DNA from: Candidatus Kapaibacterium sp.
GTDB lineage: Bacteria; Bacteroidota; Ignavibacteria; OLB7
NCBI GenBank assembly: GCA_035539855.1
Contig: DATLHO010000169.1
Coordinates: 23,883 to 87,882 of the forward strand
DNA: 64,000 bases
Direction of reading: 5' to 3'
How positions within the stretch are numbered: the stretch's first letter is position 1; every line of letters starts with the position of its first letter. The notes beneath the pieces were generated by a model that was not told the origin of the DNA, searched no databases, and saw only the letters and a list, made by a program, of their open reading frames with translations. Made by a program: the position numbers and the translations under genes. Shown piece after piece: positions 34,896-61,494 of the stretch.

Positions 34896-35372
34896 ATGGA
34901 AGACTTCGGATCGATCATTCAGGCGACGCTCACTCCGGTCACGCTGATTTCCGGCGTAGGGCTGCTGCTGTTGAGCATGGTCAACCGCTACAACCACGCG
35001 CTCGACCGCGTTCGCCAGCAGCTCCGTGAGCTGCACACGCGATCCGAGGCCGAGCGCCAGAAGATCACCTACTCGATCGACATCATCTACGCGCGCTGCC
35101 GGCTGATCCGGCGCGCGATTCTCTGCGTCGCGATCAGCGTCGTCGCAAGCGGCGCGATCGTGTTGCAGACCGCCGTCGAGGCGCTCTTCGGATTTCAGGC
35201 CTTCGCGGTGAAGGCACTGCTCCTCGTCGTCTCCATCGGCCTCGTCGTCGTCGCCGCGATCCTCTTCGTCATCGAGATCACGTATTCGCTCCGTGCGCTC
35301 GAGATCGAGATGGAGGACGAGATGGTGCCGCGCAGCATGCTCTCGATCAGCCGGCGCCGCCGGGCTCAGTAG
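34896..35372 (+). CDS. DUF2721-like membrane protein
   Basis: N-terminal …LTPVTLISGVGLLLLSMVNRYNHALDRVRQ and two further TM helices. Assignment from memory of the family consensus. Confidence 0.5.
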   Translation: MEDFGSIIQATLTPVTLISGVGLLLLSMVNRYNHALDRVRQQLRELHTRSEAERQKITYSIDIIYARCRLIRRAILCVAISVVASGAIVLQTAVEALFGFQAFAVKALLLVVSIGLVVVAAILFVIEITYSLRALEIEMEDEMVPRSMLSISRRRRAQ

Positions 35373-39888: not shown

Positions 39889-42800
39889 ATGACACCCCAC
39901 CCGCGATTCACCTCGGGCCCATTGGCCCTATTCCTCTTTGTTGTGTTTCTCGCGCCATCGTCCGGCAAGGCGCAATCGAGCGGACGCTACCGCAATTTCC
40001 ATTACGACTCCACGTTCCACATCGGCAGCCATAACCTCAGCCTCGTCAGGCTCGCGAAGGACACGATCGGCTTCGATTTCAATTACAACTACGCCGCCGA
40101 CCTGGCCGGCATCCGCGCACTGCTGAACACGCCCGACAGTCTGCTCACCTGGGGCCAGATCTACGAGAAGCGATACTATCTAGCAGCCGACACATGCTCG
40201 TTCGGGCTCATTTTCACACCGAGCCGCTTCAAAGCGCTGGAGGGGGAGAGCAGCGATGGCGCGCAGGGGGGTAGCTTTCGATGCCAGGACAATTACGTTC
40301 GTGGGGACGCCAACCTGCAGCTCCTCGACTATGCCGACGCGCCGCCCGCAAGTGGTATCTGGGCTAGCGCCATCGACGGTCAGGTAAGCGCTCTGGAGAT
40401 TCCGAAACTCGCTTCGCCTGTGAATCAGACAATCATAACGATGCCCCGGTATGTGTCGACTCTAGGACTTCACCTGCCAAGCACGAAATTCTACGACAGC
40501 GCTACGATGGGTGACCATCACCTGGGACCGGACAGCCTCCGGTATCGATTCAAGATCGGTTTCCATATCGTAGCTCCGGACATCATTGAAGTCGATCCGA
40601 CAGACACGATTGCGTACGCCACGTTCTATCAGCGTGTCGATACGTTGCAGGGTCAGGAAAGCACGGACTGCCGCTGCCGGATCTATGAGCCGTTCGAAAC
40701 GCTCGTCGTCACGCGAGCCACATACTTAGACAATGACCTTTCACCGCTGGTTGGTGGGGTTGAAGGCAATTACCGGGACGTTAGTAGGTGGATCGATATC
40801 CGCGGCGGGTGGTACCATCCCGCGCCGGGCCAGTCGTTTCGGTCACGCCTCGGAGACTGGCTTGGAAGCCTCAATGCAGGTCCATGCACATCCATCGGCC
40901 CGCAGCGCACCTGTGCCTCGCTTCTGCTGTGGCTCCGCGACACACTACAGATCCTGGACCCCGGCTCGCTGTCACTTTCAGACGATGCCCTTGAATCCGA
41001 TCTGATCTTTAGCTTCACCACGACACGCCGCACGAAAATCAGGTACCTCAGAAGCCGTGTATCGTCGCACGCGTTCGAGGCGCTCCAGGCCGGTACACTT
41101 GACGACTGGCTGAAGGAGGAGATCGCTCTCTTTTACACGGACAGCGTTCTCGCCCCCATGCGGCGGCAACTCCTACGCTTCGGCGTTTACGACGAACCGC
41201 ACTGGCCGATGTATCCGGCGAACCGACTGCTCGCGCTCAAGCTCCAGGACTTCATCGAGGACGACAGCGCGGGCGACCGCCGCGGTCTCTTCCAGAACCC
41301 TACTACTAGCTTCGACAGTTATCGCACGTTTCTCGGTGATCTGAATCCCAACCAGCGCAAGGCCATTCACCAGATGTCGCGTCAGCTCTTCAACGTCATC
41401 GGGGGGCCCGTGCCGGTGCGATATGCCAACCCCGATTTCATGGATGATGCGGCCCTCGAGTCATTCTACGCGCCGAATGGCACCGCGGGCTTTCCCAAGA
41501 TGATAGCGCTGACCTCGCCGACTGATTACCAGGCGTATCTCTATCGCACGCAGAAGTACGCCTTCGGTAAGTATTTCGACCACAACAATAACGACCTGCC
41601 TGACTCCGCCCAGACGACAGTCAAAGGCGCCCTCGTTCCAATGCTCGGTCGCTTGGTCGACGTCGGCAGATTCAAGTATCAGAATCGCGTTCGCGACAGC
41701 GTTCCGATCTGGAACGTCGTGCAGACGTCGGGCTGGCTTCCCGAAGCCGGCAACGTGGAGGATACGCTCGGGTACCGCGGCCTATGGTCGCAGCGGCTCG
41801 TCACGCCTGAAGAGGTGGCGGCTCAATGCTGGCTCTCGCTCAACGCGGGCGTCCAGGGTCTCGAATTCCAGGAGCCGGCGTTCGACGGGCCGAACGTCGG
41901 CTACGTCGATCAGTTCCTTGGGACCGGCCGCGTCAAATGGGCGCTACCGTTCGATTCGCTCGGCAACGGCGAGTATGACACCGCCACAGCGAGCCATAGC
42001 AAGTTTTGGGAGGGGACGCCGAAAACTCAGTGGCGATTCCCGAAGATGTGGCTCGGCTTTCGTACGCGGTATCTCGCAGTCAAGCGTATCATCGCCGAAC
42101 TCCGCAGAATCGATACCGTCTACTCGAGATTGTACTATCGCAAAGAGCAGATCTCAATTTTCGATACGCGGCAATCCCTCGACACGTTCCCGTTGGTTCA
42201 GTCACTGCAGACGCGGCTTGCGCGACGATTCCCGAACAGCAGCGGCGGCTTTGGCGATTCAACAGTGGTCGATGCGCGCGATTCGACCTATCTCGAGCTG
42301 ACACATCTCTATCCGGGTCCGCGTGATACCGTCGCCTTCCGTCGCGGTGCACGATATCTGGTTCTGACGAATCGCCGCACGTGGCCGATCGATACGCTCA
42401 CGTACTCCAGCCGCACGACCCAGTACGGATCTGCGACGCGCGGTTATGGAAACATCGACGTCCGCCGGCCCCTCGTCGTCCTCAAGAACACGACAGGAGT
42501 CATTGCCGACAGTTTCTTCGTCGAGAAGGTCGGCTACGAGTCGACAACAAGGGACACGGCACGCTTCGGGGACACCGTCGTCCTCGGCTGGCTCGAGCCT
42601 GGCTGGGGAGCACTGTATCGAATCACGCCGTTGCCGAGCGGAGTCTCACAGGGCGGCACCTCGTACAACAACGTCATTCACAGCATCAATCCGTCGACTC
42701 GTGACAGCGTTTGCGATCGCCTCGTCGTCTACGAGAAGGACTCGATCGTCTACCTGCGTGCGGTCGATTCGACCGGCAAATGGAGTCGCCCGTGGCGTAT

Positions 42801-45000
42801 CAGTGATACAACCGACATTCGTGACAGCTCGTCGCCGTGGCTGCCGCGCGCCAGGAATTTCCATCCGGCCGTCGCCGTCACGCCCGGCGGGACGTCGGCA
42901 CTCGTGGTCTGGGAGCGCTGGCACGTCGATTCCTCCGCCGCCTCCGTCGAGGCCTTATGGATCGAGAGCCGGCCGAAGGCATCGGCCGCCAACATCGGCG
43001 ACAGCATTCGATTCCATGTCACGCGCGACCGCCTCAGGACGAATCCCCTCGATACGTTGGGTTTCGCTCCGGCGGCCATCGGAATTGACGGAGGCTATGT
43101 CATTGCCTATGCGACCGGCAACGAGCATGGGATGAGCCTGACGGTATTGCAGGACCAGCCGTATGGCCTCGTCTCCGGCACAACGAACGATACGGCGAGC
43201 GCGCATGCCATCTGCTGGAACTGCCAGGGCACGGCGTTGCCACCCCTGATCGACAGCACGTCGTACTTCCCCACGCTCGCCTACGTTCGCAACGAGGGCA
43301 TCGTCCCGTTTGTCAATCATTGGCGGTGGTGTGGGACCGGTCCTGGCGACTCGATCGTTCCCTCGAACATGTCGGCGCATGTCGTACACCTCGCCTACCA
43401 GCAGGGTAGGCTGCACCTTGCCAACGCGCAGTACATCATGTACAACCAGGCGGCGATCACGTTTCGGCAGAACCAGTTCCCCTCCTATCCACCCGCGATC
43501 TGGATCTCGCCGACGGAGCACGTTAGTGCGGGACTTCCCGGGTGCGGCTTCCTTCATCCTTCGATCGCCGCCGACTCGGTGCTGACCGGCGTAGCGTTCC
43601 AGGCGCACTCGAGCGCTCGCCGGCGCGTCGTGCTACGCTTCCGAGACACGCTGACGTTCCCGGTCTTCAAGGCAACGTGGAAAACGCCAACATATGCCTG
43701 GGCAGAGCGGAGCACCGATTGGTACGAATGGCCCTCCGCAACGCAATTCCCGGCCCTGCCAATGACGGCACTCAGAGGTGCGACCGGCGGGCCCAAGGGA
43801 GGTATCGTCTGGTATCATTCCAACGACACAACGGGCGTTACGCCACAGTATCTCTATCGCTACGGCTATGCGGCGGTCGAGAGAATTCCGAACGGCCAGT
43901 ATCCAACGCTGACGCTCGTTCCGTTTCTCGATACGCTTCCATTTGAATCGTCCAGCATCTTCTATCGAGGGGATACCTCGTCACAATATCTGGGACCGCG
44001 ACCCGGCCTTACGACCGGCACATACTATCCGGCCGCTCTGTTGAACACAGGCACTACCCGATCATCCCTGTTCCGCACAGCAGTTGAGGACAACATCGTA
44101 CACGGTGTCGATATCCGGACGATTTCGGAGCGCAACTGCTCACCTTTTGCCATCCGTGATCGTGATATCAAGGCGGGCCTCTTGACGATGACAACCATCA
44201 CAGAGACCGGGGAGGTCGCGACGTCGGCGACGACGCCGGGGCTTCCTCCGTCGTTCTTTGCCGAACCGATCAACGACAACACGGTGGTCGAATCGCTCGA
44301 GCAATCGGAGCGAGTTGCACGGACGAGTGTCTTTGCGACCACGGCGATCAATCAAGCGATTCGCCGGCAGGTCTCACGCGCGAGCAACGTGATGTCGTGG
44401 CTTGATGGCGAGCCCTACGACAGTGTGCTTCAGCGCGACGCGGACGTTTGGGTACTCACGGAACTCGTACGTGCGGCCGACAGCGTCGTGCTATGGCACG
44501 ACGATACGATCTCCGTTCGCGCGATGACGGTCGACTCACTCGACGAGAGCGTCGAGGTACCGACGAGTACCTACGCGGCACCCAACACGCCTGTCTTCGT
44601 GCGCCTGCGCGTCGAGGCGACCGAGGGTCTCGCGTACGTTCTATCGGCTGGCTTCGAGTGGTCCCGCACGGGACCGCCTTTCACACCTAAGCCAGGCAGG
44701 CGCTTCAAGCAGCGGCAGAATGTACTGGACGCTGGTAGCGAACTGTCGGTTATGGTTCATCCAATTCCGGCTTCGGAGGAACTGCAGATATCGGTTCTCT
44801 CGAAATCATCGGGCCGACTGACGTACATGCTGCGAGACAACCGGGGGTTAGCCGTCGGCGCGCCCGGCACAACCACGGTCTCGGCGGATCGCCCGGCAAT
44901 CGTTCCGTACGATCTGCGGGATGTTCCGAGCGGAAGCTACTATCTCGAGGTCACCGTTAACGGCAATCGCGTCGTCACGAAGGTCTCCGTGCTCCGTTGA
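39889..45000 (+). CDS. Giant secreted protein of unknown function (1703 aa) with T9SS-type C-terminal sorting domain
   Basis: Signal MTPHPRFTSGPLALFLFVVFLAPSSGKAQ. W/Y-rich, no recognised catalytic motif. C-terminus …ELSVMVHPIPASEELQISVLSKSSGRLTYMLRDNRG…SGSYYLEVTVNGNRVVTKVSVLR fits the CTD consensus. Begins 29 nt after the FG-GAP gene, so likely co-transcribed. Confidence 0.75.
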   Translation: MTPHPRFTSGPLALFLFVVFLAPSSGKAQSSGRYRNFHYDSTFHIGSHNLSLVRLAKDTIGFDFNYNYAADLAGIRALLNTPDSLLTWGQIYEKRYYLAADTCSFGLIFTPSRFKALEGESSDGAQGGSFRCQDNYVRGDANLQLLDYADAPPASGIWASAIDGQVSALEIPKLASPVNQTIITMPRYVSTLGLHLPSTKFYDSATMGDHHLGPDSLRYRFKIGFHIVAPDIIEVDPTDTIAYATFYQRVDTLQGQESTDCRCRIYEPFETLVVTRATYLDNDLSPLVGGVEGNYRDVSRWIDIRGGWYHPAPGQSFRSRLGDWLGSLNAGPCTSIGPQRTCASLLLWLRDTLQILDPGSLSLSDDALESDLIFSFTTTRRTKIRYLRSRVSSHAFEALQAGTLDDWLKEEIALFYTDSVLAPMRRQLLRFGVYDEPHWPMYPANRLLALKLQDFIEDDSAGDRRGLFQNPTTSFDSYRTFLGDLNPNQRKAIHQMSRQLFNVIGGPVPVRYANPDFMDDAALESFYAPNGTAGFPKMIALTSPTDYQAYLYRTQKYAFGKYFDHNNNDLPDSAQTTVKGALVPMLGRLVDVGRFKYQNRVRDSVPIWNVVQTSGWLPEAGNVEDTLGYRGLWSQRLVTPEEVAAQCWLSLNAGVQGLEFQEPAFDGPNVGYVDQFLGTGRVKWALPFDSLGNGEYDTATASHSKFWEGTPKTQWRFPKMWLGFRTRYLAVKRIIAELRRIDTVYSRLYYRKEQISIFDTRQSLDTFPLVQSLQTRLARRFPNSSGGFGDSTVVDARDSTYLELTHLYPGPRDTVAFRRGARYLVLTNRRTWPIDTLTYSSRTTQYGSATRGYGNIDVRRPLVVLKNTTGVIADSFFVEKVGYESTTRDTARFGDTVVLGWLEPGWGALYRITPLPSGVSQGGTSYNNVIHSINPSTRDSVCDRLVVYEKDSIVYLRAVDSTGKWSRPWRISDTTDIRDSSSPWLPRARNFHPAVAVTPGGTSALVVWERWHVDSSAASVEALWIESRPKASAANIGDSIRFHVTRDRLRTNPLDTLGFAPAAIGIDGGYVIAYATGNEHGMSLTVLQDQPYGLVSGTTNDTASAHAICWNCQGTALPPLIDSTSYFPTLAYVRNEGIVPFVNHWRWCGTGPGDSIVPSNMSAHVVHLAYQQGRLHLANAQYIMYNQAAITFRQNQFPSYPPAIWISPTEHVSAGLPGCGFLHPSIAADSVLTGVAFQAHSSARRRVVLRFRDTLTFPVFKATWKTPTYAWAERSTDWYEWPSATQFPALPMTALRGATGGPKGGIVWYHSNDTTGVTPQYLYRYGYAAVERIPNGQYPTLTLVPFLDTLPFESSSIFYRGDTSSQYLGPRPGLTTGTYYPAALLNTGTTRSSLFRTAVEDNIVHGVDIRTISERNCSPFAIRDRDIKAGLLTMTTITETGEVATSATTPGLPPSFFAEPINDNTVVESLEQSERVARTSVFATTAINQAIRRQVSRASNVMSWLDGEPYDSVLQRDADVWVLTELVRAADSVVLWHDDTISVRAMTVDSLDESVEVPTSTYAAPNTPVFVRLRVEATEGLAYVLSAGFEWSRTGPPFTPKPGRRFKQRQNVLDAGSELSVMVHPIPASEELQISVLSKSSGRLTYMLRDNRGLAVGAPGTTTVSADRPAIVPYDLRDVPSGSYYLEVTVNGNRVVTKVSVLR

Positions 45001-49661: not shown

Positions 49662-50219
49662 ATGCACACGACGACCCAGATCTGGAACGAATACAACGCG
49701 AAGCTCCACGCCTTCATCGTCCGGCGTGTGAGCGATCGCTCGACGGCCGACGACATCCTTCAGGACGTCTTCCTGAAGACGCATCGGCGGTTGCACGAGC
49801 TCAAGGACGGAGCGAAGCTGCAGAGCTGGCTCTACCAGATCGCGCGCAACGCGATCATCGATCACTACCGCGAGCGGCGTCTGTCGACCGAGTCGCTCGA
49901 AGAGCTGCCTGCCGACGGACCGGACGCGAGCGATGCCGCGGTGCGCGAGCTGGCCGAGTGCCTGCGTCCGATGATCGAGCAACTGCCGGATCACTACCGC
50001 GACGCCCTGATTCTCGCCGACCTCGACGGCATGACCCAGCGAGAGATCGCCGAGCGTCACGGCATCTCGCTCTCCGGCTCGAAGTCGCGCGTGCAGCGAG
50101 CGCGCACGATGCTCCGCGATCAGCTCGACGCCTGCTGCCGCTTCGAGTTCGACCGGCGCGGCAGCGTCGTCGGCTACACACCGCACGCGTGCGCAGACGA
50201 CTGCGAGAGCGACTGCTGA
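49662..50219 (+). CDS. ECF sigma factor with Cys-rich C-terminal extension (CorE-like / ECF44-type)
   Basis: Sigma region 2 (DILQDVFLKTHRRLHELKDGAKLQSWLYQIARNAIIDHYR) and region 4 (YRDALILADLDGMTQREIAERHGISLSGSKSRVQRARTMLRDQL) followed by CCRFEFDRRGSVVGYTPHACADDCESDC. Confidence 0.8.
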   Translation: MHTTTQIWNEYNAKLHAFIVRRVSDRSTADDILQDVFLKTHRRLHELKDGAKLQSWLYQIARNAIIDHYRERRLSTESLEELPADGPDASDAAVRELAECLRPMIEQLPDHYRDALILADLDGMTQREIAERHGISLSGSKSRVQRARTMLRDQLDACCRFEFDRRGSVVGYTPHACADDCESDC

Positions 50220-50315
50220 AATCTCTGCGTCCTTTTCGCGACCGCTCCGTCTCCGTTGGTGAGCATGGCACGACGCCATGCGCCATACACGACATCAACT
50301 CTCGAGAAACGAACG

Positions 50316-51104
50316 ATGGAACAGTTGACGAGCGACGAGATCCGCACCGCGGTGCGTGAGAATTACGGGAAGGTGGCGGACAGCGGATGCGGCTGCGGGC
50401 CCTCGTGCTGCGAGCCGAGCGCGCCGCTGGACCTTGCGGCGCAGTCGAGGGCGCTGGGATATTCCGACGAGGAGATCGCGGCGGTTCCCGAGGGCGCGAA
50501 CCTCGGGCTCGGCTGCGGCAACCCGCAGGCGATCGCCGCGATGAAGCCGGGCGAGACCGTGCTCGATCTCGGCAGCGGCGCCGGCTTCGACGCGTTCCTC
50601 GCGGCGACCGCGGTCGGCCCAACCGGTCGCGTGATCGGAGTGGACATGACCCCGTCGATGCTCGCGAAGGCGCGCGAGAACGCCGCGAAGTCCGGCCGCA
50701 CGAACGTCGAGTTCCGACTCGGCGAGATCGAGCAGCTCCCGGTCGCCGACGCGACCGTCGATGTCATCATCTCCAACTGCGTCATCAACCTGTCGCCGGA
50801 GAAGGGGCGCGTCTTCAACGAGGCCTACCGCGTGCTTCGCGCGGGCGGGCGCCTGGCGATCTCCGACGTCGTCGCGACGGCCGAGCTGCCGGCGTCGATC
50901 AGGGGCGACCTGGCGCTGTACTCCGGCTGCGTCGCCGGCGCCTCGACGATCGACGAGCTCGAGGCGATGATGCACGCCGCCGGCTTCACCGACATCGTCA
51001 TCGCGCCGAAGGACACCAGCCGCGAGTTCATCCGCGAATGGGCTCCCGGAACGAAGATCGAAGACTACGTGGTCTCGGCGACAATCGAGGCGAGGAAGAA
51101 GTAG
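50316..51104 (+). CDS. arsM: Arsenite S-adenosylmethionine methyltransferase
   Basis: SAM motif VLDLGSGAGFD. Conserved Cys residues (GCGCGPSCCE, …ISNCVINLS…, …LYSGCVAG…). N-terminus MEQLTSDEIRTAVRENYGKVA matches ArsM starts. Alternative starts at 50256/50265. Confidence 0.85.
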   Translation: MEQLTSDEIRTAVRENYGKVADSGCGCGPSCCEPSAPLDLAAQSRALGYSDEEIAAVPEGANLGLGCGNPQAIAAMKPGETVLDLGSGAGFDAFLAATAVGPTGRVIGVDMTPSMLAKARENAAKSGRTNVEFRLGEIEQLPVADATVDVIISNCVINLSPEKGRVFNEAYRVLRAGGRLAISDVVATAELPASIRGDLALYSGCVAGASTIDELEAMMHAAGFTDIVIAPKDTSREFIREWAPGTKIEDYVVSATIEARKK

Positions 51105-53024: not shown

Positions 53025-54134
53025 CTACCCCGACTCGTACAACGTGATCGCCGACGTCTTGACGATGATGAACAGCTCGGTGCCCGGCGCGCTGTGAAGC
53101 TCGGCGACCGCCTCGGCGGTGACCTCGGCGACGATCGGCGGCGCGTCGCCGGCGAGGCGCGCGGTGATCAGACGCAGAGCCCCGACCGCCTCGACGCTCT
53201 CGACGCGCGCGGCGATGATGTTGCGCGCCGACAGCAGCCGCGGGCGCTCGAGCGCGAGCGTGATCTCGGCCGCGGGAATGCTGAGCATGACGTGCGATCC
53301 CGGCGCGACGCTCGCGCGCGGCACCGTCATCGTCGGCCCGTCGTCGGCGCTTCCAACGCGCACAATGCTCGTCTCGTCGCGGTTGTCGACGATGACCGCG
53401 GGCACGACATTCTCGAAGCCCTCCGCCTCCGCCAGCGGGAAGACCTCCGGCCGCGTCAGCACGGCGCGTGGCTCCCCGCGCGCGATCACCCGACCTTCGC
53501 GCAGCACGACGAGGTCCTCGCAGAGCGCCATCACCTCGACGGGATTATGCGACACGACGAGCATCGGCAGGGCGAACTCGCGCTGCATGCGGTAGAGGAA
53601 CGGCAGCACCTTGCGGCGCAGCGCGACGTCGAGCGCGGCGAGCGGCTCGTCCAGGAGCATGAGGTCGGGTCCGGAGCAGAGCGCGCGCGCGAGCGCGACG
53701 CGCTGGCGCTCACCGCCGGAGAGGGTCGTCGCGCGCTGATCGAGCAGGCGCTCGATGTCGAGCACGCGCACGGCGGCGGCGAAGATCCCGTCGAAGTCGT
53801 GGCCGGTCGCGATCGCGCGGGCGCGGCCGGCGCGCAGGTTCTCGCGCACGTCGAGGTGCGGAAACAGCAGCGAGTCCTGCGGTACGTAGCCGATGCCGCG
53901 CCGCTCGGGCGCGAGCCAGACGCGCCGTTCGGTGTCGAGCCAGTCGACGTCGCCGAAGCGCACGACGCCTCGCGCGCCGCGGCGCAGCCCCGCGACGGTC
54001 TCGAGCAGCGACGTCTTGCCGGAGCCGCTGACGCCGAAGATGCCGGTGACGCGATGGGTCGTGGCGATGTCGATCTCGAGCGCGAAGCGATCGAGTGGCA
54101 GCGCGATGTCGATGGAGAGGATGGGCTGGGACAT
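53025..54134 (-). CDS. modC: Molybdate ABC transporter ATP-binding protein ModC (with C-terminal TOBE/Mop domain)
   Basis: Walker A GVSGSGKTS. Signature LSGGERQRVALARAL. Walker B LLLDEP. C-terminal Mop-like region. Start MSQPILS (54132-54134) overlaps the modB stop (TGATG). Confidence 0.85.
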   Translation of the reverse strand: MSQPILSIDIALPLDRFALEIDIATTHRVTGIFGVSGSGKTSLLETVAGLRRGARGVVRFGDVDWLDTERRVWLAPERRGIGYVPQDSLLFPHLDVRENLRAGRARAIATGHDFDGIFAAAVRVLDIERLLDQRATTLSGGERQRVALARALCSGPDLMLLDEPLAALDVALRRKVLPFLYRMQREFALPMLVVSHNPVEVMALCEDLVVLREGRVIARGEPRAVLTRPEVFPLAEAEGFENVVPAVIVDNRDETSIVRVGSADDGPTMTVPRASVAPGSHVMLSIPAAEITLALERPRLLSARNIIAARVESVEAVGALRLITARLAGDAPPIVAEVTAEAVAELHSAPGTELFIIVKTSAITLYESG

Positions 54135-54796
54135 CAGACCGGCATCCTCCGTCGACCGAGCACGGTCGTGATCCACATGACGACGAACGCGACGCCGAGC
54201 AGCACGAGCGCCGAGCGATTGGCCGCGGCGTAGTTCATCGATTGCACGTTGTCGTAGATCGCGATCGACAGCGTGCGCGTCGTGCCGGGAATGTTGCCGC
54301 CGACCATGAGCACCACGCCGAACTCACCGAGCGTGTGCGCGAACGTCAGCACCAGCGACGCGAGCAGTCCCTGCCAGCTCAGCGGCAGCGTCACGGTGAA
54401 GAACGTCTTGAGCCGTCCGTTGCCGAGCGTCCGCGACATGTCGATGAGCCGGCGATCGACGCTCTCGAAGCCGGCGACGAGCGGGCGCACCGCGAACGGG
54501 ACGTTGAAGATGATCGAGGCGATGAGGATGCCGCCGAAGCTGAACGGAAGCATCCCGCCGGTGAGCTCGTGATAGACGGCGCCGAACGGACCGTTCGGTC
54601 CCATCGCCATCAGCAGGTAGAACCCGACGACCGTTGGCGGCAGCACCAGCGGCAGCGCGATGATCGCCTCGAGCACGGTCTTGCCGCGCCACTTCGTCAT
54701 GGCGATCCAGTGCGCCAGCGGAACGGCGAACAGGAAGAGGATGCCCGCGGTCGAGAGCGCGAGCCGGGTCGTCAGCGCTATTGCGTCCCAGTCCAC
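54134..54796 (-). CDS. modB: Molybdate ABC transporter permease ModB
   Basis: Five TM helices. EAA-like loop …SRTLGNGRLKTFFTVTLPLSWQG. ModB-type sequence throughout. Confidence 0.9.
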   Translation of the reverse strand: MDWDAIALTTRLALSTAGILFLFAVPLAHWIAMTKWRGKTVLEAIIALPLVLPPTVVGFYLLMAMGPNGPFGAVYHELTGGMLPFSFGGILIASIIFNVPFAVRPLVAGFESVDRRLIDMSRTLGNGRLKTFFTVTLPLSWQGLLASLVLTFAHTLGEFGVVLMVGGNIPGTTRTLSIAIYDNVQSMNYAAANRSALVLLGVAFVVMWITTVLGRRRMPV

Positions 54797-54799
54797 TGG

Positions 54800-55663
54800 C
54801 TACTCGCCGGGAATGATGAATCCGTACGAGCGCAGCACCCGACGGCCGTCGGCTCCGCTCATGTACGCGACGAGCTTCGCGGCCGCCTCGGGTTCGTGCG
54901 CGCGCGAGAGAATGATCCCGCCCTGCTCGAGCCGCGGATACGCGTCGAGCGGTACCGGCCAGTACGTCCCCTTGTCGCGCATCGACGGCGCCATCGCCAG
55001 CGACAGCGCGATGATGCCGACGTCCGCCGCGCCCGACTCGATGAACTGCGCGGTCTGCGCGATGTTCTCCCCGAGGACGAGCCGATCCTTCACCGCATCG
55101 TAGACCCCGAGCGACTTCATCGCGGCCTCGGCGGCGCGTCCGTACGGCGCGTGCTCGGGATTGGCGATGGCGATCTTCCCGATCTCCGGCGAGCGCAGCG
55201 CCTCGATCCCCTTCCCCTTGACGTCGACGCCCGAACCGGACGGCGCCCAGAGCACGATCTGTCCATCGGCGTAGTGAAAGAGCGAGCTGCTGTCGGCATG
55301 TCCGGCCGCCGCGAGCTTGCGCGGGTACACGATATCGGCCGAGAGAAAGACATCGAACGGAGCGCCGTTCGACAACTGCGAGAAGAAGTTCCCCGATGAG
55401 CCGTACGAGACCTTCACCTCGATCGAGGGATCGACCGTCCTGAACGCCGCGACGATCTCGTCGAGCGCGAACTTCAGGTCCGACGCCGCGGCGACCGTGA
55501 CGTGGCGCGTCGCGGCGGTATCCGGAGACGTCGTCGCTGCGCCATCGGCGGCGTCGCGTGCGTCACCGCCGCAGCCGACGATGATGGTCGACAGGAGAAC
55601 GAGAGCCGCGCAGCCGAGAAACAGCCGGGCGAGACGAGCGAGAATGCTATGGATCATCGGCAT
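54800..55663 (-). CDS. modA: Molybdate ABC transporter substrate-binding protein ModA
   Basis: Lipoprotein-type signal (…LSTIIVGCGG). VSYGSSGNFFSQLSNGAPFDVFLSAD anion-binding-site region typical of ModA. Confidence 0.85.
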   Translation of the reverse strand: MPMIHSILARLARLFLGCAALVLLSTIIVGCGGDARDAADGAATTSPDTAATRHVTVAAASDLKFALDEIVAAFRTVDPSIEVKVSYGSSGNFFSQLSNGAPFDVFLSADIVYPRKLAAAGHADSSSLFHYADGQIVLWAPSGSGVDVKGKGIEALRSPEIGKIAIANPEHAPYGRAAEAAMKSLGVYDAVKDRLVLGENIAQTAQFIESGAADVGIIALSLAMAPSMRDKGTYWPVPLDAYPRLEQGGIILSRAHEPEAAAKLVAYMSGADGRRVLRSYGFIIPGE

Positions 55664-55672
55664 GTCGTCGGT

Positions 55673-56962
55673 TCAGAAATCGAGCTGCGCCATCAGGTAC
55701 GCCCAGTAGACGGGATCAATCCCGAAGCGGGATTCGAGCAGCGGTCCCGGAAGGAAAACGCCTCCGCCGCCGGCGACCTCGAGCGCCGGATTCGCGCGCC
55801 ACGAGCCGATCAGGTCGAGCTCGGCGCCGAACGTGCCCGCGCCGCGCTGCGGAGCGAGCCGGTGCGCTTCGAGCAACAGCCGCATGCCCTTGACGGGCGC
55901 GACCGATGCACCAACGGCGACATCGACGAGGCCGGCCGTCCCGCCGATGGATTCCGGCACGATGTCCATCTGCCCGTAGACGCGATGGTTCGTTCCGAAC
56001 AGCGTGTTGAAATTCTCCGTGCGGTCGTCGTCGGAAGAGCCATCGCCGGAGAGCGCCGTGACGAGTCCGAAGACACGGGTCCTCGTCGCGCTGTCGACGA
56101 TCGCTGCGAGGGTCGCGCTCGCCATGAACGCGCCGATCGCCCTTCGTGCGCTCGAGTCCGTCGTTGCGGCGCGGCCGGCCTGCAGTGCGCCCTCGAGCTC
56201 GACCTCGACGGTGCCCGCGCTCGCGCGCAGCCACGTGCCGGCGGTGTAGCGCTCGAGGACCGCGTGCCCGGTATCCTCGCCGCGCCGCACGTGCGTCGTG
56301 TTGTCGTCGCGCAGGCCGAAGAGATCGACCGCGAGACCGGACGAGGGCTTCCACGTGCTCCAGACGCCGTAGAGATTCTTCGATGCAATCGGTCCCGGAT
56401 TCGGCGCGGTCAGTCGCGCGGCGAACAGGTCGACGCTGGCGCGATCGACGTGCAGCGTCGCGCGCGCGGCATCGAACGCGCGGCCGGTGTTGCTCCAGTT
56501 CGAGACGCCGATGAGCCGCTCGTTGGCGAATGACATCTCCTGTCGTCCGACGCGCAGGCTCACGGGCACGCCGCCGACGCTGTCGATCGCGGCCCACGCC
56601 TGGTGCATGTCGAGCTGCTCGGCGTCGGCGTCGCTGGTGCCCCGGCCGGACGTCGGATCGCTCTGGCCCCAGTAGCGCGCATCCTGGATCTCGACGACCG
56701 CGGTGATGCCCGCGAGCGGACGCGCCGTCGCGCGCAGCCGTGATCGAAGCAGGTGCACGAGCACGCCGTCATCGGCCAGCACGCCGCGATGGTCGATCTC
56801 GCTGCGCACGCGCACCTGTCCGTTGATCGTCACGACCCGAGCCGAATCGGCGGACCCGGACCGCGACGAATTCTGCGCGGCAAGCGGAGCCGCGACGACC
56901 ATCGCAGCGAGCGCGAGCAGGCGAGCGGTACTGCGCAGGTATCTGGTGTGCGGTTCGATCAT
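55673..56962 (-). CDS. Outer-membrane beta-barrel protein (porin/alginate-export-like) upstream of modABC
   Basis: Signal MIEPHTRYLRSTARLLALAAMVVAAPLAAQ. Amphipathic β-strand pattern. C-terminal …YLMAQLDF aromatic terminus. Confidence 0.6.
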   Translation of the reverse strand: MIEPHTRYLRSTARLLALAAMVVAAPLAAQNSSRSGSADSARVVTINGQVRVRSEIDHRGVLADDGVLVHLLRSRLRATARPLAGITAVVEIQDARYWGQSDPTSGRGTSDADAEQLDMHQAWAAIDSVGGVPVSLRVGRQEMSFANERLIGVSNWSNTGRAFDAARATLHVDRASVDLFAARLTAPNPGPIASKNLYGVWSTWKPSSGLAVDLFGLRDDNTTHVRRGEDTGHAVLERYTAGTWLRASAGTVEVELEGALQAGRAATTDSSARRAIGAFMASATLAAIVDSATRTRVFGLVTALSGDGSSDDDRTENFNTLFGTNHRVYGQMDIVPESIGGTAGLVDVAVGASVAPVKGMRLLLEAHRLAPQRGAGTFGAELDLIGSWRANPALEVAGGGGVFLPGPLLESRFGIDPVYWAYLMAQLDF

Positions 56963-57040
56963 GAGCGTGTTGTGATCGATGCCAGGGACGGCGCGACGAC
57001 GCCTGCCGCGACGCGATCCTCGCGACGGGCCGAATCCTAT

Positions 57041-57817
57041 CTACTCCATCGCGGCGCGCGACATCGCCCGCCGCGCGATGGCGAACAGCACCGTGCCGAG
57101 CAGCGCGAGCGGCACGAGCAGCGCTGCCGCGTCGGGGATGCGCGCCAGCAGCAGCGCCTCGCGCAGTGCGCTGGCGACCAGCGACAGGGGATTCCAGCGC
57201 GCCACGGTCTCGAGCCAGTCGGGCATCTGCCGCGGCGGCACCAGGGCGGTGCTCGTGAACAGCAGCGGCATGTTCGAGACGTGAACGAAGACGGCCATCG
57301 CCTCCTGCGACTTCGCACTCAATGCGATCGAGCACGAGAGCGCCGACCACGCGAACGCGAAGACGGCGAGTCCCGCCAGCGCGAGAACGGTCCCTGGGAC
57401 GCTCGGGCTCAGCCGCGCTCCGAGCGCGAGACCGAGCAGCGCCACGACGGCCGCCTGCGCCAGCAGGCGCACGACGTCGGCGCCGATCATGCCGGCGAGC
57501 ATCCAGCCGGGATGAGCCGATGCGCGCACCAGACGCTGGACGAATCCCGTCTGCAGATCGCGCACGAGGTTGATTCCCGCCTGCGACGCGCCGAAGAGCA
57601 CGGTCATGCAGCAGACACCGGGTAACAGCACGTCGAAGTATCGCAGCCCGACATACTCCGGACCGAGCTGCGCGATCCTGTCGAAGAGAAATCCGAACGT
57701 CAGCAGCCACAGCAGCGGCTGCACGAACGAGAAGCTCAGCGGCACCGGCCGGCGCAGCGTCTTGCGCCAGTTGCGCAGCGCCGTCTCGCGCACGATATGC
57801 AGGGCCGTCGCGGTCAT
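57041..57817 (-). CDS. ABC-2-type transporter permease
   Basis: Six TM helices. N-terminal …LRNWRKTLRRPVPLSFSFVQPLLWLLTFGFLF typical of ABC-2 exporters. Confidence 0.8.
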   Translation of the reverse strand: MTATALHIVRETALRNWRKTLRRPVPLSFSFVQPLLWLLTFGFLFDRIAQLGPEYVGLRYFDVLLPGVCCMTVLFGASQAGINLVRDLQTGFVQRLVRASAHPGWMLAGMIGADVVRLLAQAAVVALLGLALGARLSPSVPGTVLALAGLAVFAFAWSALSCSIALSAKSQEAMAVFVHVSNMPLLFTSTALVPPRQMPDWLETVARWNPLSLVASALREALLLARIPDAAALLVPLALLGTVLFAIARRAMSRAAME

Positions 57818-58911
57818 GACGCACCTCGCGGGCCGCCGCGATTGGAGCCACGACCTCCGCCAGTGCCGGAGCCACGACCTGATCGGCCCGCGACCCGCGA
57901 ATCATCCGACGCATCCCGGTCAGCCGCGACGACGGCGCCCGTGAGCTCGAAGAACGCACTCGAGAGGTCGGGAGGATGCTGCTCGAAGCGAGACACCGCG
58001 ATCTCGAGCGCGCGCAACGCATCGAGTGCGGGCTCGGGTCCGTGGAGGGGAACGCTGCGCGTGATCGTGATGACCGCGCCGTGAATCTCGACGCGAACTC
58101 CGCCACCGGCGCCGCTCGCACCACCGGCGCGCTCGAGTGCGTCGCGCAGCGAGGCGGGATCGTGCGGAATGCGCGCGAGCTCGATGGTCGTGCGCGCGCG
58201 GCCGTGTGACGCGACGAGGGCGGAGGGCGCGTCGTCGGCAACGATGCGCCCGGCGCTCAGCAGCACGATGCGGTCGCAGTGCGCCTGGACGTCGGCCAGG
58301 TCGTGCGTGACGACGAGCAGCGTGTGTCCTCCGTCGCGCCACGCGACCAGCCGGCGCCAGAGCGCGGCGCGGCCGGAGGGATCGAGACTCGACGTCGGCT
58401 CGTCGAGCAGCAGCAGCGCGGGCGCGTGCATCGTCTCGATGGCCAGGTGCAGCCGCTGGCGCTGTCCGCCCGAGTAGCCTGCGACGCGCCGCTCGACGAA
58501 CGATCCGAGCTCGAGCTCCTCGACGATCGCCGCGATGCGTCGCGTTCGCTCGCCATGGGGAAGTCCCCGCAGCGCGTAGAACAACCGCAGCGTCTCGGCG
58601 CCGGTGATCTCGCCGTCGAGCGCGAGATCCTGTCCGACGTATCCCGTCATCGTCCGAAAGGCCGCGTCGCTCGTGCGTGGCGTCGCGCCGAAGACATCAA
58701 CCGTTCCCGCGTCGGGAGCGATCACGCCCGCGACGATGCGCAGCATCGTGCTCTTGCCGGAGCCGTTGGCTCCGGCAAGAGCGACGAGCCGTGCGGGCTC
58801 GATGGCGCAGTCGATGCCGTCGAGCGCGTGCACGCCGGCGAAGCTGCGCCGGACGCCGGCCAGCCGAACCGCCGGCGCGACGTCAATCGGCGTAGACGAT
58901 CGTTCCGACAT
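57814..58911 (-). CDS. ABC transporter ATP-binding protein (partner of the ABC-2 permease)
   Basis: Walker A GANGSGKST. Signature YSGGQRQRLHLA. Walker B LLLLDEPTSSLD. Start MSERSS at 58909-58911 preferred over the extended ORF to 58989. Overlaps the permease start by 4 nt. Confidence 0.8.
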   Translation of the reverse strand: MSERSSTPIDVAPAVRLAGVRRSFAGVHALDGIDCAIEPARLVALAGANGSGKSTMLRIVAGVIAPDAGTVDVFGATPRTSDAAFRTMTGYVGQDLALDGEITGAETLRLFYALRGLPHGERTRRIAAIVEELELGSFVERRVAGYSGGQRQRLHLAIETMHAPALLLLDEPTSSLDPSGRAALWRRLVAWRDGGHTLLVVTHDLADVQAHCDRIVLLSAGRIVADDAPSALVASHGRARTTIELARIPHDPASLRDALERAGGASGAGGGVRVEIHGAVITITRSVPLHGPEPALDALRALEIAVSRFEQHPPDLSSAFFELTGAVVAADRDASDDSRVAGRSGRGSGTGGGRGSNRGGPRGAS

Positions 58912-59707
58912 GCTCGCCGGCGACCGCCGCGGCGATGCGCTCGGGGTCGCGTCCGTTGACGAGCTGGAACTGCTTGACGAGTCGTGCATTGGTCAGGAGA
59001 TCCGGAAGAACCTCGTCGAAGGGGAGGGTCTTGAGGTTGCGGCGCTTGAGCTCCTTCGCGCCGATCGAATCGATGAACGACGCGTTGCCGTTGAGCTTGG
59101 GATCCTCGGTGTACAGGCCGTCGACGTCCTTGACGAACGTGACGGTCTTGGTGCCGAAGCACTCGCCGAGGATGAAGCAGCCGGCGTCGGTGCGATGCGG
59201 CGGGATGCGTCCGACTCCGGGAGGATGCTCCCAGAGCGAGTACGGCGGCACGCCGTTGAAGATGACGCCCGGCGCCGAGTGGATGAACAGCGGAAGCAGG
59301 TGGCCGAAGATCTCCGGCGGGATCGCGACGACACCGTACTGCGACAGCAGCGTGCCGAGGATGTGCGCGTTGCCGAGCGCGTCGGCGACGGACACCTGCG
59401 CGAGCACGCCGACGGGCAGCCCGAGGTCGATGCCGATCGACCAGACGTGTCGGCTGCGGACGCCGCCGCCGACGCCGAGGATGAGCTTCTCGCTCTCGAG
59501 CAGCCGCGCGAGCACGTCGACGACCGGATAGGTGAGCGCCTTGCCCTGATCGATGATCGAGCGGCCGCCGATCTTGATGATGTGCGCATTCGGAAGCATG
59601 CGCACGACCGGCGACTCAGTACGCGCCATCACCTGCTTATCAAGCAGGCTCTCGCGCATCAACATCGAATTGACATGATGCCGCGAATCAACAGGTATAT
59701 CAGCCAT
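58883..59707 (-). CDS. Amino-acid-kinase-fold protein, molybdenum-storage-protein subunit-like (MosA/MosB family)
   Basis: IIKIGGRSIIDQGKAL…LGVGGGVRSRH…PPYSLWEHPPGVGRIPPHRTD…VKDVDGLYTEDPK… mirrors the UMP-kinase-like MoSto pattern. Tandem paralog of the next gene, at the head of the mod cluster. Confidence 0.65.
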   Translation of the reverse strand: MADIPVDSRHHVNSMLMRESLLDKQVMARTESPVVRMLPNAHIIKIGGRSIIDQGKALTYPVVDVLARLLESEKLILGVGGGVRSRHVWSIGIDLGLPVGVLAQVSVADALGNAHILGTLLSQYGVVAIPPEIFGHLLPLFIHSAPGVIFNGVPPYSLWEHPPGVGRIPPHRTDAGCFILGECFGTKTVTFVKDVDGLYTEDPKLNGNASFIDSIGAKELKRRNLKTLPFDEVLPDLLTNARLVKQFQLVNGRDPERIAAAVAGEHVGTIVYAD

Positions 59708-59759
59708 GAAAGTAAAGCCAGTTGCGAATGAGAATTCCCAGTCCCTTAGTCCCTATCCG

Positions 59760-60581
59760 TCAATCCGCCGAAATAATCGTCCCCACTTCTTCGCCTTCTA
59801 GCGCCCGCGTGAGGTTTCCGGGAACGAGCCCGTTGATGATCTGGATCGACCGGCGGCTCTCGGCGTTCTCCATGAGATCGAGCACGGCGCGCTCGACGAC
59901 GACATCGTCGAGGTCCATCTCACGAAGCTCGCCGAGCGTGATCTTCGGGATGAACTTCGCGTGCTTCTCCTTCTTCGGATCGGCCGTGTACAGTCCGTCC
60001 TCGTCCTTGACGTAGATCATCGAGCGCGTGCCGAAGACCTCGCTGATGAGGTAGCAGCCGGTGTCGGTGCGATGCGGTGGGATGCGTCCGATCTCGGGGT
60101 TCTTCTGCCAGAAGGTGTACGGCGGCATGCCGAAGAAGACGACCGCGCCGCGCTCGGCGAGGTACAGCGGAAGCTGTGGGAACTGCACCGGCTCGATGAA
60201 CGGGATGCCGTGCTTCGCCAGCAGGTAGTGCAGCATGCGCGCGTTCTGCATGCTCACGAACGTGCCGAGCACGCTGAGCACGCCGGTCGGCATGCCGAGG
60301 TCGATCCCGACGCTGTATGCGTGGCGCGCGCGCGTGCCGGCGCCGGTGCCGATGATCATCTTGTGCCGGCCGAGATTCGCGACGATCTCATCGATGATCG
60401 GGAACACCGCGCTGCGGCCGCGATCGATGAAGCTCTGTCCGCCGATCTTCACGACGTTGGCGTTGGGGAGAATCTGCAGGACCGGATGCTCGTTGGTGCG
60501 CGCGAGCAGCTCGAGATCGGTGATGTTACCGTCGACGAGCGCGCGACCGAGGTCGGTCAGGACTTCGTTCTGCATGGACAT
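59760..60581 (-). CDS. Amino-acid-kinase-fold protein, molybdenum-storage-protein subunit-like (MosA/MosB family)
   Basis: VVKIGGQSFIDRGRSAV…IIGTGAGTRARHAYS…GMPPYTFWQKNPEIGRIPPHRTDTGCYL…VKDEDGLYTADPKK…VNGLVPGNLTRALEGEEVGTIISAD closely parallels Azotobacter MosB as recalled. Start MSMQNEV (60579-60581) preferred over the Arg-rich N-terminal extension of the longer ORF. Confidence 0.7.
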   Translation of the reverse strand: MSMQNEVLTDLGRALVDGNITDLELLARTNEHPVLQILPNANVVKIGGQSFIDRGRSAVFPIIDEIVANLGRHKMIIGTGAGTRARHAYSVGIDLGMPTGVLSVLGTFVSMQNARMLHYLLAKHGIPFIEPVQFPQLPLYLAERGAVVFFGMPPYTFWQKNPEIGRIPPHRTDTGCYLISEVFGTRSMIYVKDEDGLYTADPKKEKHAKFIPKITLGELREMDLDDVVVERAVLDLMENAESRRSIQIINGLVPGNLTRALEGEEVGTIISAD

Positions 60582-60658: not shown

Positions 60659-61450
60659 TCACTGATGTCGCGTTCGGATCGCATGGAGCTCGAATAATTC
60701 CTCCTGTACGATCTCCAGGTCGATGTCGCCGTAGCGCCCGCGCGCCCATCGCTCGACCTCGTCGAGGACCGCGCTCTTGACGTCGTCGGGCAGCACGAGA
60801 GCGCCGAGCCCTTCCTTGCCGCGCCACGACGCGATCGATTCCGCCGGAGAGTGCACGGTCAGCCACCGCGAGGCGACGCTCGGCTCGGCTGCGAACGCGC
60901 CGCGCGCGACGAGCGCTTCGAACACGCGCGCGGTGTGGTCGTCGTGACTGCGCGCGTCGAAGCCGTGCTCGCGCAGGGTTCGTCGCATCTGCCGTCGCAT
61001 CTCGGACTTCACGGAGTCTTTGGGACGCCGCACCTTCCCGACGATGAGCGATCCTCCGGGGCGAAGCACGCGCTCGAGCTCCGCGACGACGTGCTCCGCG
61101 GCCATGTGGTGCAGCGCGCGGGCGCAGAAGACCAGGTCGATCGAGCGATCGTCGGCCGGCCAGCGCTCGTTGCCGTCGGCGACGACGAGCCGCGCGCGCA
61201 GTCCAGCCTGCTCGACCTTCGCGCGGACGACCGCCAGCATCTCCGGCGAGCGATCGAAGCCGGTGTACTCGACCGCGTCCTCGAGCAGGTGGATCGTGAT
61301 CAGACCGGTGCCGACGCCGGGCTCGAGCACGGTGGTGCCGGGCGTCAGAGGGACGATCGTTTCGATCATCATGGCGACGTCGAGGGCGGCTTCCTCGGGG
61401 ATGCCGGCGCGGTCGTCGTAGTTGGGGGCCTGGTCGTTGTAGAGCATCAA
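60659..61450 (-). CDS. Class I SAM-dependent methyltransferase
   Basis: Motif I VLEPGVGTGLITIHL. Post-I …YTGFDRSPEML. Motif …LRPGGSLIVG. 263 aa. Confidence 0.75.
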   Translation of the reverse strand: MMLYNDQAPNYDDRAGIPEEAALDVAMMIETIVPLTPGTTVLEPGVGTGLITIHLLEDAVEYTGFDRSPEMLAVVRAKVEQAGLRARLVVADGNERWPADDRSIDLVFCARALHHMAAEHVVAELERVLRPGGSLIVGKVRRPKDSVKSEMRRQMRRTLREHGFDARSHDDHTARVFEALVARGAFAAEPSVASRWLTVHSPAESIASWRGKEGLGALVLPDDVKSAVLDEVERWARGRYGDIDLEIVQEELFELHAIRTRHQ

Positions 61451-61468: not shown

Positions 61469-61494
61469 CCCCCTCTCCGAATTCGGAGAGGGGG
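61469..61494. promoter_or_regulatory. Perfect 26-nt palindrome ccccctctccgaattcggagaggggg in a divergent promoter region
   Basis: 13-bp arms around a central GAATTC. Located 19 nt upstream of the minus-strand methyltransferase start and about 235 nt upstream of the plus-strand M16 peptidase start. Confidence 0.45.

Follow-up and report, generated by a model that had tools for sequence, protein, structure and literature searches.

A predicted nine-gene operon pairing a MoSto-type molybdenum storage cage with molybdate uptake in a genome labelled Candidatus Kapabacteria

A 64,000-nt stretch of contig DATLHO010000169.1 (assembly GCA_035539855.1), here called the window, contains nine consecutive genes that, judged from homology and gene order, fit a single operon in which a storage cage of the MosB/MosA type is paired with molybdate uptake. 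The two predicted cage subunits, Mos1 and Mos2, are tandem paralogs related to the molybdenum storage protein (MoSto) of Azotobacter vinelandii. With a probability of roughly three in four, we take the operon to be one for acquiring and hoarding molybdenum.

Gene organization

An earlier sequence-only reading of the window described eight co-oriented minus-strand genes at 53025-60581, and the listing of open reading frames (ORFs) together with family scans confirmed all eight. A ninth gene of the block, encoding a class I S-adenosylmethionine (SAM)-dependent methyltransferase, lies at 60659-61447 on the same strand, 83 nt upstream of Mos1; it was absent from the gene list of that reading and is the most conserved partner of the Mos pair. 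From the first gene of the block to the last, with ABC denoting ATP-binding cassette, the genes are:

60659..61447, minus strand: class I SAM-dependent methyltransferase, 262 aa (Pfam Methyltransf_25/11; TTHA0223-like)
59760..60581, minus strand: Mos1, predicted ortholog of MosB (beta subunit), 273 aa as listed (AA_kinase)
58883..59707, minus strand: Mos2, second predicted MoSto subunit, in the MosA (alpha) position, 274 aa (AA_kinase; PDB phmmer)
57814..58911, minus strand: ABC ATPase of the ABC-2 (type V exporter) class, 365 aa (Pfam ABC_tran)
57041..57817, minus strand: ABC-2 family permease, 258 aa (Pfam ABC2_membrane, E 7.7e-29)
55673..56962, minus strand: outer-membrane beta-barrel of the AlgE/Alginate_exp family, 429 aa (Pfam PF13372, E 1.3e-30)
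54800..55663, minus strand: ModA, molybdate-binding protein with a lipoprotein-type signal (TIGR01256; Pfam SBP_bac_11, E 2.8e-65)
54134..54796, minus strand: ModB, molybdate ABC permease (TIGR02141)
53025..54176, minus strand: ModC, molybdate ABC ATPase with a C-terminal TOBE domain (TIGR02142; Pfam TOBE, residues 316-378)

Public gene calls place the Mos1 start two codons later, at 60575 (271 aa), and those of identical contigs place the ATPase start at Met27 (58911; 365 aa), so that the ATPase gene overlaps the Mos2 stop by 29 nt; the permease and ATPase genes overlap by 4 nt. Spacing within the block ranges from -43 to +83 nt, and the G+C content of third codon positions is uniform (0.82-0.92) and matches the rest of the window. 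The short gaps and overlaps, together with this uniformity, fit one operon of native composition.

Two paralogs of the molybdenum storage protein

Similarity searches place both paralogs in the MoSto family rather than with uridine monophosphate (UMP) kinase (PyrH), as the sequence-only reading had recognized. The first outcome that would have refuted that reading, clearly better scores against genuine UMP kinases, did not occur. In a phmmer search of the PDB, Mos1 matched Azotobacter MosB with 312 bits (E 3e-92) and MosA with 191 bits, and Mos2 matched MosB with 236-237 bits and MosA with 188 bits (E 3e-69 to 3e-54); these scores of 188-312 bits compare with 24-32 bits for UMP kinases, the best of which reached 32 bits with Mos1 and 29 bits with Mos2. 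The best isopentenyl-phosphate kinase scored 36 bits with Mos1, the highest value for any kinase of known activity, and 27 bits with Mos2. UMP and isopentenyl-phosphate kinases reach E values of 1e-4 to 1e-8 against the paralogs (UMP kinases about 1e-6), and the NCBIfam models of PyrH (TIGR02075, TIGR02076) stay far below their cutoffs, with 52-57 bits for pyrH_arch (cutoff 158) and 23-32 bits for pyrH_bact (cutoff 244).

Like PyrH and other enzymes of the amino-acid-kinase superfamily, the paralogs possess the common fold with its KxGG and D-G-[LIV]-[YF]-x-x-DP nucleotide motifs; the UMP-binding region of PyrH, marked by the motif GTGNPFFTTD, is replaced by the MoSto-specific G-M/V-PPY…W…GRIPPHRTD loop. 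The string of motifs that the sequence-only reading had ascribed to both paralogs is complete in Mos1 (KIGG, GTGAGTRARH, PPHRTD, VKDEDGLYTADPK, and INGLVPGNLTRAL with I instead of V); Mos2 has diverged versions of it (GVGGGVRSRH, VKDVDGLYTEDPK, VNGRDPERIAAAV). The two proteins are 41-42% identical and their genes are 52 nt apart.

Pfam gives the paralogs the generic AA_kinase domain only. NCBIfam has no MoSto model, which explains why NCBI record HVK39102.1, from a metagenome-assembled genome (MAG) labelled Candidatus Kapabacteria, names Mos1 'uridine kinase'; the JGI names the same cluster 'molybdenum storage protein'. The missing model and the NCBI name together imply that the MoSto family is mis-annotated in many genomes. 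The KEGG orthology group for MoSto is K00947 (mosAB), and the JGI/KEGG label has already been applied to the pair; the protein kind itself is already known.

Subunit assignment

Like MoSto of A. vinelandii (PDB 2OGX, 4F6T, 6RKD; K00947), the window pair consists of two paralogous subunits of the amino-acid-kinase fold encoded in tandem, beta then alpha; at an Azotobacter-type locus (L081), a 270-aa beta gene is followed by a 277-aa alpha gene in the same order as Mos1-Mos2. The Azotobacter MosA and MosB sequences were recovered from PDB alignments and placed in a neighbour-joining tree (300 bootstraps) with full-length 50%-identity representatives of the family and orthologs from ten other lineages. 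Proteins of the Mos1 type form a clade with Azotobacter MosB in 85% of bootstraps, proteins of the Mos2 type form a clade of their own in 99%, and topologies implying independent duplications occur in 0%. This tree, together with 56% identity to Azotobacter MosB, identifies Mos1 as the MosB (beta) ortholog. Mos2, which is 39% identical to MosA and 45% identical to MosB, is best described as the partner subunit in the MosA position, its alpha assignment deriving from gene position and not from phylogeny. Strict orthology of Mos2 with MosA had been indicated by a first midpoint neighbour-joining tree that grouped the two; this claim was dropped because the grouping failed with more taxa and bootstrapping.

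In Azotobacter MoSto, molybdate reportedly enters by being forced across the wall of the cage with ATP bound to the beta subunit, βMet149 being the gate residue displaced in the process (Brünle et al. 2019). Both βMet149 (in GMPPY) and the catalytic-site βLys42 (the lysine of KIGG) are invariant in all 80 Mos1 orthologs compared, as are the glycine-rich and VKD.DG..T..PK motifs; the nucleotide motifs are also kept in Mos2 orthologs, which have Val or another residue at the Met149 position. The window pair thus resembles Azotobacter MoSto in retaining βLys42, βMet149 and the nucleotide motifs of both subunits. Titles of PDB entries ('Kb42S variant', 6RIS; 'H156A') indicate that βLys42 and αHis156 have been probed experimentally. 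An N-terminal RHHV..LMRESLLDK motif conserved in Mos2 orthologs favours the 274-aa start of this protein. All fold matches of a single-chain AlphaFold2 (AF2) model of Mos2 are MoSto chains, alpha and beta not being separated by them.

Distribution of the Mos pair

MoSto was described from 2019 to 2025 as having no known homologs or as a trait of some nitrogen fixers (PMC6448029, PMC11980592), and is stated to occur in 'some N2-fixing organisms' (PMC11980592). The sequence-only reading likewise held that such systems sit in only a few diazotrophs, which is true of the literature and not of the genomes: when one genome per GTDB species was scanned, the Mos pair was found in at least 434 species of over ten phyla. 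Comparative sequence data indicate that the same core is widespread in soil bacteria of many phyla, unlike the rarity among nitrogen fixers that the literature describes. A word-indexed search returned at least 8000 clusters (90% identity) at E ≤ 0.001, of which the top 120 are at least 83% identical; a profile search run exhaustively against 1.84 billion representatives clustered at 50% identity returned 155 at E ≤ 1e-30, many of them fragments, with about twenty full-length clusters.

Taxon labels given here are those of the MAG records. The 80 best loci of the species scan are labelled Longimicrobium, Thermoanaerobaculia and other Acidobacteriota, Planctomycetota, Chloroflexota, Solirubrobacterales, Acidimicrobiia, Polyangia, Methylomonas, Pseudohongiella, Lysobacterales, Cyanobacteria, Flavobacteriales, Fibrobacteria and others; carriers of the block also bear the labels Gemmatimonadota, Actinomycetota, Myxococcota and Proteobacteria. 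The window's own record is labelled Candidatus Kapabacteria, which conflicts with the Longimicrobium labels of its closest relatives. At the 80 loci, Mos1 orthologs share 74-89% identity with the protein of the window (median 77%), and the range for Mos2 is 62-88%. The high identity of Mos1, combined with a neighbour-joining tree that does not track taxonomy, fits strong constraint and horizontal spread.

Mobile elements were seen at two loci, in line with mobility of the block: in a Longimicrobium-like genome the second gene upstream of the module encodes a phage-type integrase (L091:3634-4608), and an IS110 transposase is encoded upstream of the Azotobacter-type mosB (L081:1662-2654). A separate observation concerns a 732-aa protein (P0155) that joins a CbiQ/EcfT-like membrane domain at its N terminus to a distantly related amino-acid-kinase domain of MoSto-like type; the fusion suggests physical coupling of some family members to a transporter.

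Conserved neighbourhood

The tandem Mos pair is kept in 79 of 80 related loci, Mos2 following Mos1 at 2-149 nt in 77 of the 80. The methyltransferase gene immediately precedes Mos1 in 68 of 81 loci, or in 61 of the 70 (87%) that have at least 900 bp of upstream sequence, and its orthologs are only 26-51% identical; retention of the exact position at such divergence points to long-term retention and not to recent hitch-hiking. The ATPase and ABC-2 permease genes lie directly downstream of Mos2 in 20 of the 67 loci with enough sequence, under at least seven phylum labels, with permeases 48-69% identical. Conversely, all three of the close permease homologs sampled belong to modules of the order methyltransferase, two amino-acid kinases, ABC ATPase, ABC-2 permease, one of them labelled Bacteroidetes and two with modABC next. 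Antisense and alternative-frame ORFs of conserved genes were discarded as false families when neighbouring ORFs were clustered.

The sequence-only reading had considered that proximity to molybdate uptake genes supports a molybdenum role, and this linkage recurs elsewhere: of 43 loci from other genomes with full flanks, 24 have modB no more than 10 kb away, with a chance expectation estimated at about 1%, and mod is the most frequent transporter association of the Mos pair (24/43). The second outcome that would have refuted that reading, pairs never linked to mod in other genomes, is thereby also ruled out. The same reading had regarded an ABC-2 exporter and an outer-membrane barrel between mos and mod as non-canonical; this view is not supported, since the ABC-2 pair is a recurrent partner (20 of 67 loci); the barrel occurs mainly in the closest relatives and looks like an uptake channel. 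The complete nine-gene order recurs in two Longimicrobium contigs with differing flanks. The window differs from the Azotobacter-type locus in having the methyltransferase upstream and the ABC-2 pump downstream of the mos pair, neither of which is present there. That locus also contains, opposite in strand to mosA and about 1 kb downstream of it (L081:5883-6344, minus), a MobA-like NTP_transf_3 gene of a family that includes the molybdenum cofactor (Moco) guanylyltransferase.

A three-domain multicopper oxidase is encoded within 10 kb of the core in 22 of the 43 fully flanked loci (for example L092:14637-16694, minus strand; also L063, L011 and L048), and at least one of ABC-2, mod and multicopper oxidase is present in 41 of the 43. 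A connection between molybdenum and copper, whether copper handling for the Mo-Cu CO dehydrogenase or Cu-Mo antagonism, would be pure speculation.

Transport proteins

The uptake genes of the block pass the equivalog cutoffs of the molybdate models, with 180 bits for modA (TIGR01256; cutoff 62.5), 223 bits for modB (TIGR02141; cutoff 182.6) and 300.8 bits for modC (TIGR02142; cutoff 285), and fall far below those of the tungstate models WtpB, WtpC and TupB. The lipobox of ModA (…IIVGC) was read from the translation, and cytoplasmic molybdate can probably exert feedback through the TOBE domain of ModC. A difference from the known ModABC importer is that modABC of the window follows, within one predicted operon, the genes of a storage protein, of an ABC pair of the exporter class and of an outer-membrane channel.

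The barrel scores 107 bits with PF13372 (cutoff 25.2). It has no relative of solved structure in the PDB that is detectable by sequence; its AF2 model, with a predicted local distance difference test (pLDDT) score of 83.5, has 18 strands and an N-terminal signal helix, and the protein ends in a C-terminal Phe. Foldseek ranks AlgE as the top PDB match (template modelling score 0.66-0.69), followed by OccK/OprD channels. The barrel thus resembles AlgE of Pseudomonas aeruginosa and OccK/OprD in being 18-stranded and monomeric, and differs from AlgE in being 14-16% identical to it and in having mod and ABC-2 genes, and no alginate biosynthesis genes, as neighbours. This mod context makes uptake of a small anion the likely direction of transport, not polymer export, and the barrel is more likely to be an anion-selective uptake channel feeding ModA than an efflux duct. 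A barrel gene occupies the same position in three Longimicrobium loci (L002, L091, L092), barrel homologs of at least 50% identity come from contigs whose lengths recur among the Mos1 and permease matches, with two of these homologs confirmed in the same operon position, and a weak Alginate_exp barrel precedes the module in a Flavobacteriales MAG.

Two more distant Alginate_exp barrels, 29-32% identical, are encoded directly upstream of a Rieske/cytochrome b/multihaem/molybdopterin-oxidoreductase/NapB-like cluster (L088:7001-8230) and of nrfH-nrfA-like genes (L090:379-1614). From their sequence contexts, both look like anion-specific porins for nitrate/nitrite systems; such nap-type and nrfHA neighbours suit anion-specific uptake channels.

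The ABC-2 pair, an ABC2_membrane permease with a DrrA-like ATPase, resembles exporters of the DrrAB/NodIJ/NosFY type. The ATPase scores 182 bits over the full drrA model (TIGR01188; cutoff 312), and its nearest nucleotide-binding domains of solved structure are those of ABCA4/7/1, Rv1218c and NosF; the permease scores 95 bits with drrB (cutoff 223) and has no meaningful match of solved structure in the PDB. Unlike DrrAB, therefore, the pair falls below the drrA and drrB cutoffs, and it forms a group of its own beside mosB-mosA in many phyla. These comparisons assign it to the exporter class, not to the daunorubicin subfamily. The pair has no binding protein of its own; its putative efflux role follows solely from the transporter class. 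No bacterial molybdate exporter was found described in the searchable literature.

The methyltransferase

The closest informative relative of solved structure is the uncharacterized TTHA0223 of Thermus thermophilus (2YQZ; a full-length match with residues 11-257 aligned, E 2.5e-16), of which no mention was found in the searchable literature. The SAM-binding motif ExGxGTG and an acidic residue after motif I are conserved in 62 orthologs. Among the orthologs no ArsM-type cysteine is conserved, and sequence comparison of the methyltransferase with tellurite and arsenite methyltransferases gave no match above noise.

Proposed function and alternatives

In the mechanism that we propose, molybdate would cross the outer membrane through the AlgE-like 18-stranded barrel, presumed to be an inward-conducting anion channel, and would be bound by the lipoprotein ModA and imported by ModBC. 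By homology to the Azotobacter protein, Mos1 and Mos2 may assemble as a MoSto-type heteromeric cage, through the wall of which molybdate would be driven by beta-bound ATP; inside the cage, by the same analogy, molybdate would condense as polyoxomolybdate clusters and later be released for molybdenum-cofactor enzymes. The most likely, if speculative, role of the ABC-2 pump and the methyltransferase would be to tune or relieve the store, for example by export of surplus molybdate, tungstate or a by-product; a speculative role for the methyltransferase would be to modify the cage or a co-imported metalloid.

The sequence-only reading had noted no nif genes in the window, and indeed no nif, Moco-biosynthesis or molybdoenzyme gene is found among the larger ORFs scanned across it. 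Nitrogenase is probably not the client of this store, a point checked within the window alone. Unlike Azotobacter, the host lineage of the window is not known to fix nitrogen. Since nitrogen fixation is indicated neither by the window nor by the lineage as labelled, the stored molybdenum is proposed to serve molybdenum-cofactor enzymes.

Several observations weigh against this proposal of a molybdenum store. In Azotobacter MoSto, αHis156 and αGlu129 hold a covalent octamolybdate and three symmetry-related histidines hold a Mo3/W3 cluster (PMC4504029). Retention of the residues lining the molybdenum clusters, which the sequence-only reading had put forward as a check, was not borne out in Mos2 for the two covalent ligands: the αHis156 column holds Ser in the window protein and Ser (67), Ala (9) or Asn (1) in 77 orthologs, and αGlu129 is matched by a Glu conserved in 72 of the 77 only after a two-residue register shift. 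The PPY…IPPH loop of Mos2 also differs from that of MosA in being two residues longer, as in beta subunits. The histidine of the triad on the threefold axis is presumably αHis140; window Mos2 has a His, in FIHSA, 11 residues after the conserved Glu, which equals the E129-H140 spacing, and the likely αHis140 column is variable among orthologs, the commonest residue accounting for less than 30%. Proteins of the Mos2 type group with Azotobacter MosA in only 2-20% of bootstraps, and the AF2 single-chain model of Mos2 is poor (pLDDT 61; shallow alignment). Finally, outside the closest relatives the barrel is found with the module in a single weak case, that of the Flavobacteriales MAG. An invariant WEH follows the conserved Glu in Mos2 orthologs, and the stretch GVVAIPPEIFGHLLPLF…PPYSLWEHPP, nearly invariant across phyla, offers candidate new cluster ligands.

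It is unlikely that the ABC-2 pump, barrel and methyltransferase are functionally unrelated to the storage protein and were carried along in shared transfer of a block. The presence of the ABC-2 pair in 30% of loci, the near restriction of the barrel to the closest relatives, the 74-89% identity of MosB across phyla in a tree that ignores taxonomy (which suggests horizontal spread) and the integrase or insertion sequence (IS) element adjoining two loci would all be expected of such hitch-hiking. They are countered by the fixed position of the methyltransferase in 87% of loci at 26-51% identity, by the overlap of the ATPase start with the Mos2 stop and of the permease with the ATPase, by the occurrence of every sampled close permease homolog in the same module, and by the Alginate_exp barrels that accompany the module in Longimicrobium-labelled loci and in the Flavobacteriales-labelled MAG.

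Quite unlikely, too, is a genuine cage whose cargo is tungstate or another oxyanion instead of molybdate, acting mainly in sequestration and detoxification; here the ion would be trapped by the cage and expelled, as such or in derived form, by the ABC-2 pump, and the methyltransferase would act on a metalloid imported alongside. Azotobacter MoSto also stores tungsten and protects against it (PMC6448029), 2OGX being the polyoxotungstate form; the alpha-subunit cluster ligands here differ from those of Azotobacter, an exporter-class pump and a methyltransferase are conserved partners, and modB is missing from the surrounding 10 kb at 19 of the 43 loci with full flanks. The assignment of ModA, ModB and ModC above their equivalog cutoffs, with WtpB, WtpC and TupB far below, and the rank of mod as the most frequent transporter association (24/43) argue for molybdate, and handling of a metalloid is disfavoured by the lack of both a conserved ArsM-type cysteine and a match to tellurite or arsenite methyltransferases above noise.

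That the paralogs are ordinary enzymes of the amino-acid-kinase fold (a UMP/uridine or isopentenyl-phosphate-type kinase) standing beside mod by chance, as the NCBI name 'uridine kinase' and the generic AA_kinase match of Pfam might suggest, is highly improbable given 190-310 bits to MoSto chains versus 24-36 for any kinase of known activity, pyrH equivalog scores of 23-57 bits against cutoffs of 158-244, a tandem heteromeric pair in 79 of 80 loci, mod linkage recurring across phyla, and the simple lack of a MoSto model in NCBIfam.

Beyond the nine-gene operon for acquiring and hoarding molybdenum, a wider interpretation is offered tentatively and with considerable doubt: the methyltransferase-MosB-MosA core, often with the ABC-2 pump, would be a hitherto undescribed machinery for molybdenum homeostasis, widespread among soil and aquatic bacteria that for the most part are not diazotrophs, and the Azotobacter protein would be a stripped-down offshoot of it; the ABC-2 pair would be the first bacterial exporter of molybdate, tungstate or cage-derived species, with the methyltransferase governing cage loading or release.

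The breadth of the family outside diazotrophs, the near-universal methyltransferase partner and the recurrent ABC-2 pump are not described in the searchable literature. MoSto is known from one organism, and its beta subunit is here among the best-conserved proteins of a multi-phylum block. If the cages do store molybdenum, hoarding would be a general supply strategy for molybdenum-cofactor enzymes in molybdenum-poor soils, not an adaptation to nitrogenase. The exporter-class ABC pump could be the first bacterial efflux system for molybdate or tungstate, and the methyltransferase, almost always accompanying the cage, poses a testable question about the module.

Regulatory elements and other genes of the window

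An Rfam scan of the whole window gave no match of any kind, and hence no Moco riboswitch, and no modE was found. A promoter consensus scan gave no match, and there are two terminator-like matches, both intragenic and no more than in shuffled sequences. A 26-bp perfect palindrome, CCCCCTCTCCGAATTCGGAGAGGGGG, unique in the window, is located at 61469-61494, 20 nt upstream of the methyltransferase start. It is not claimed as an operator, because its conservation extends only to near-identical contigs; relatives whose methyltransferase is 47-51% identical lack it.

The larger ORFs scanned elsewhere in the window encode housekeeping and other unrelated proteins, including MnmE, MnmG, malic enzyme, citrate synthase, isocitrate dehydrogenase, a two-component system and proteases. 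An extracytoplasmic function (ECF) sigma factor (49662-50219, plus strand) is followed by a cysteine-rich Methyltransf_31 protein (50256-51104), by its look a putative arsenite methyltransferase. The window also contains a 1703-aa ORF with no Pfam match at E ≤ 1e-5 (39889-45000, plus strand) and an ORF for a bacterial eRF1-like protein of baeRF family 3/7 (35366-36499, minus strand).

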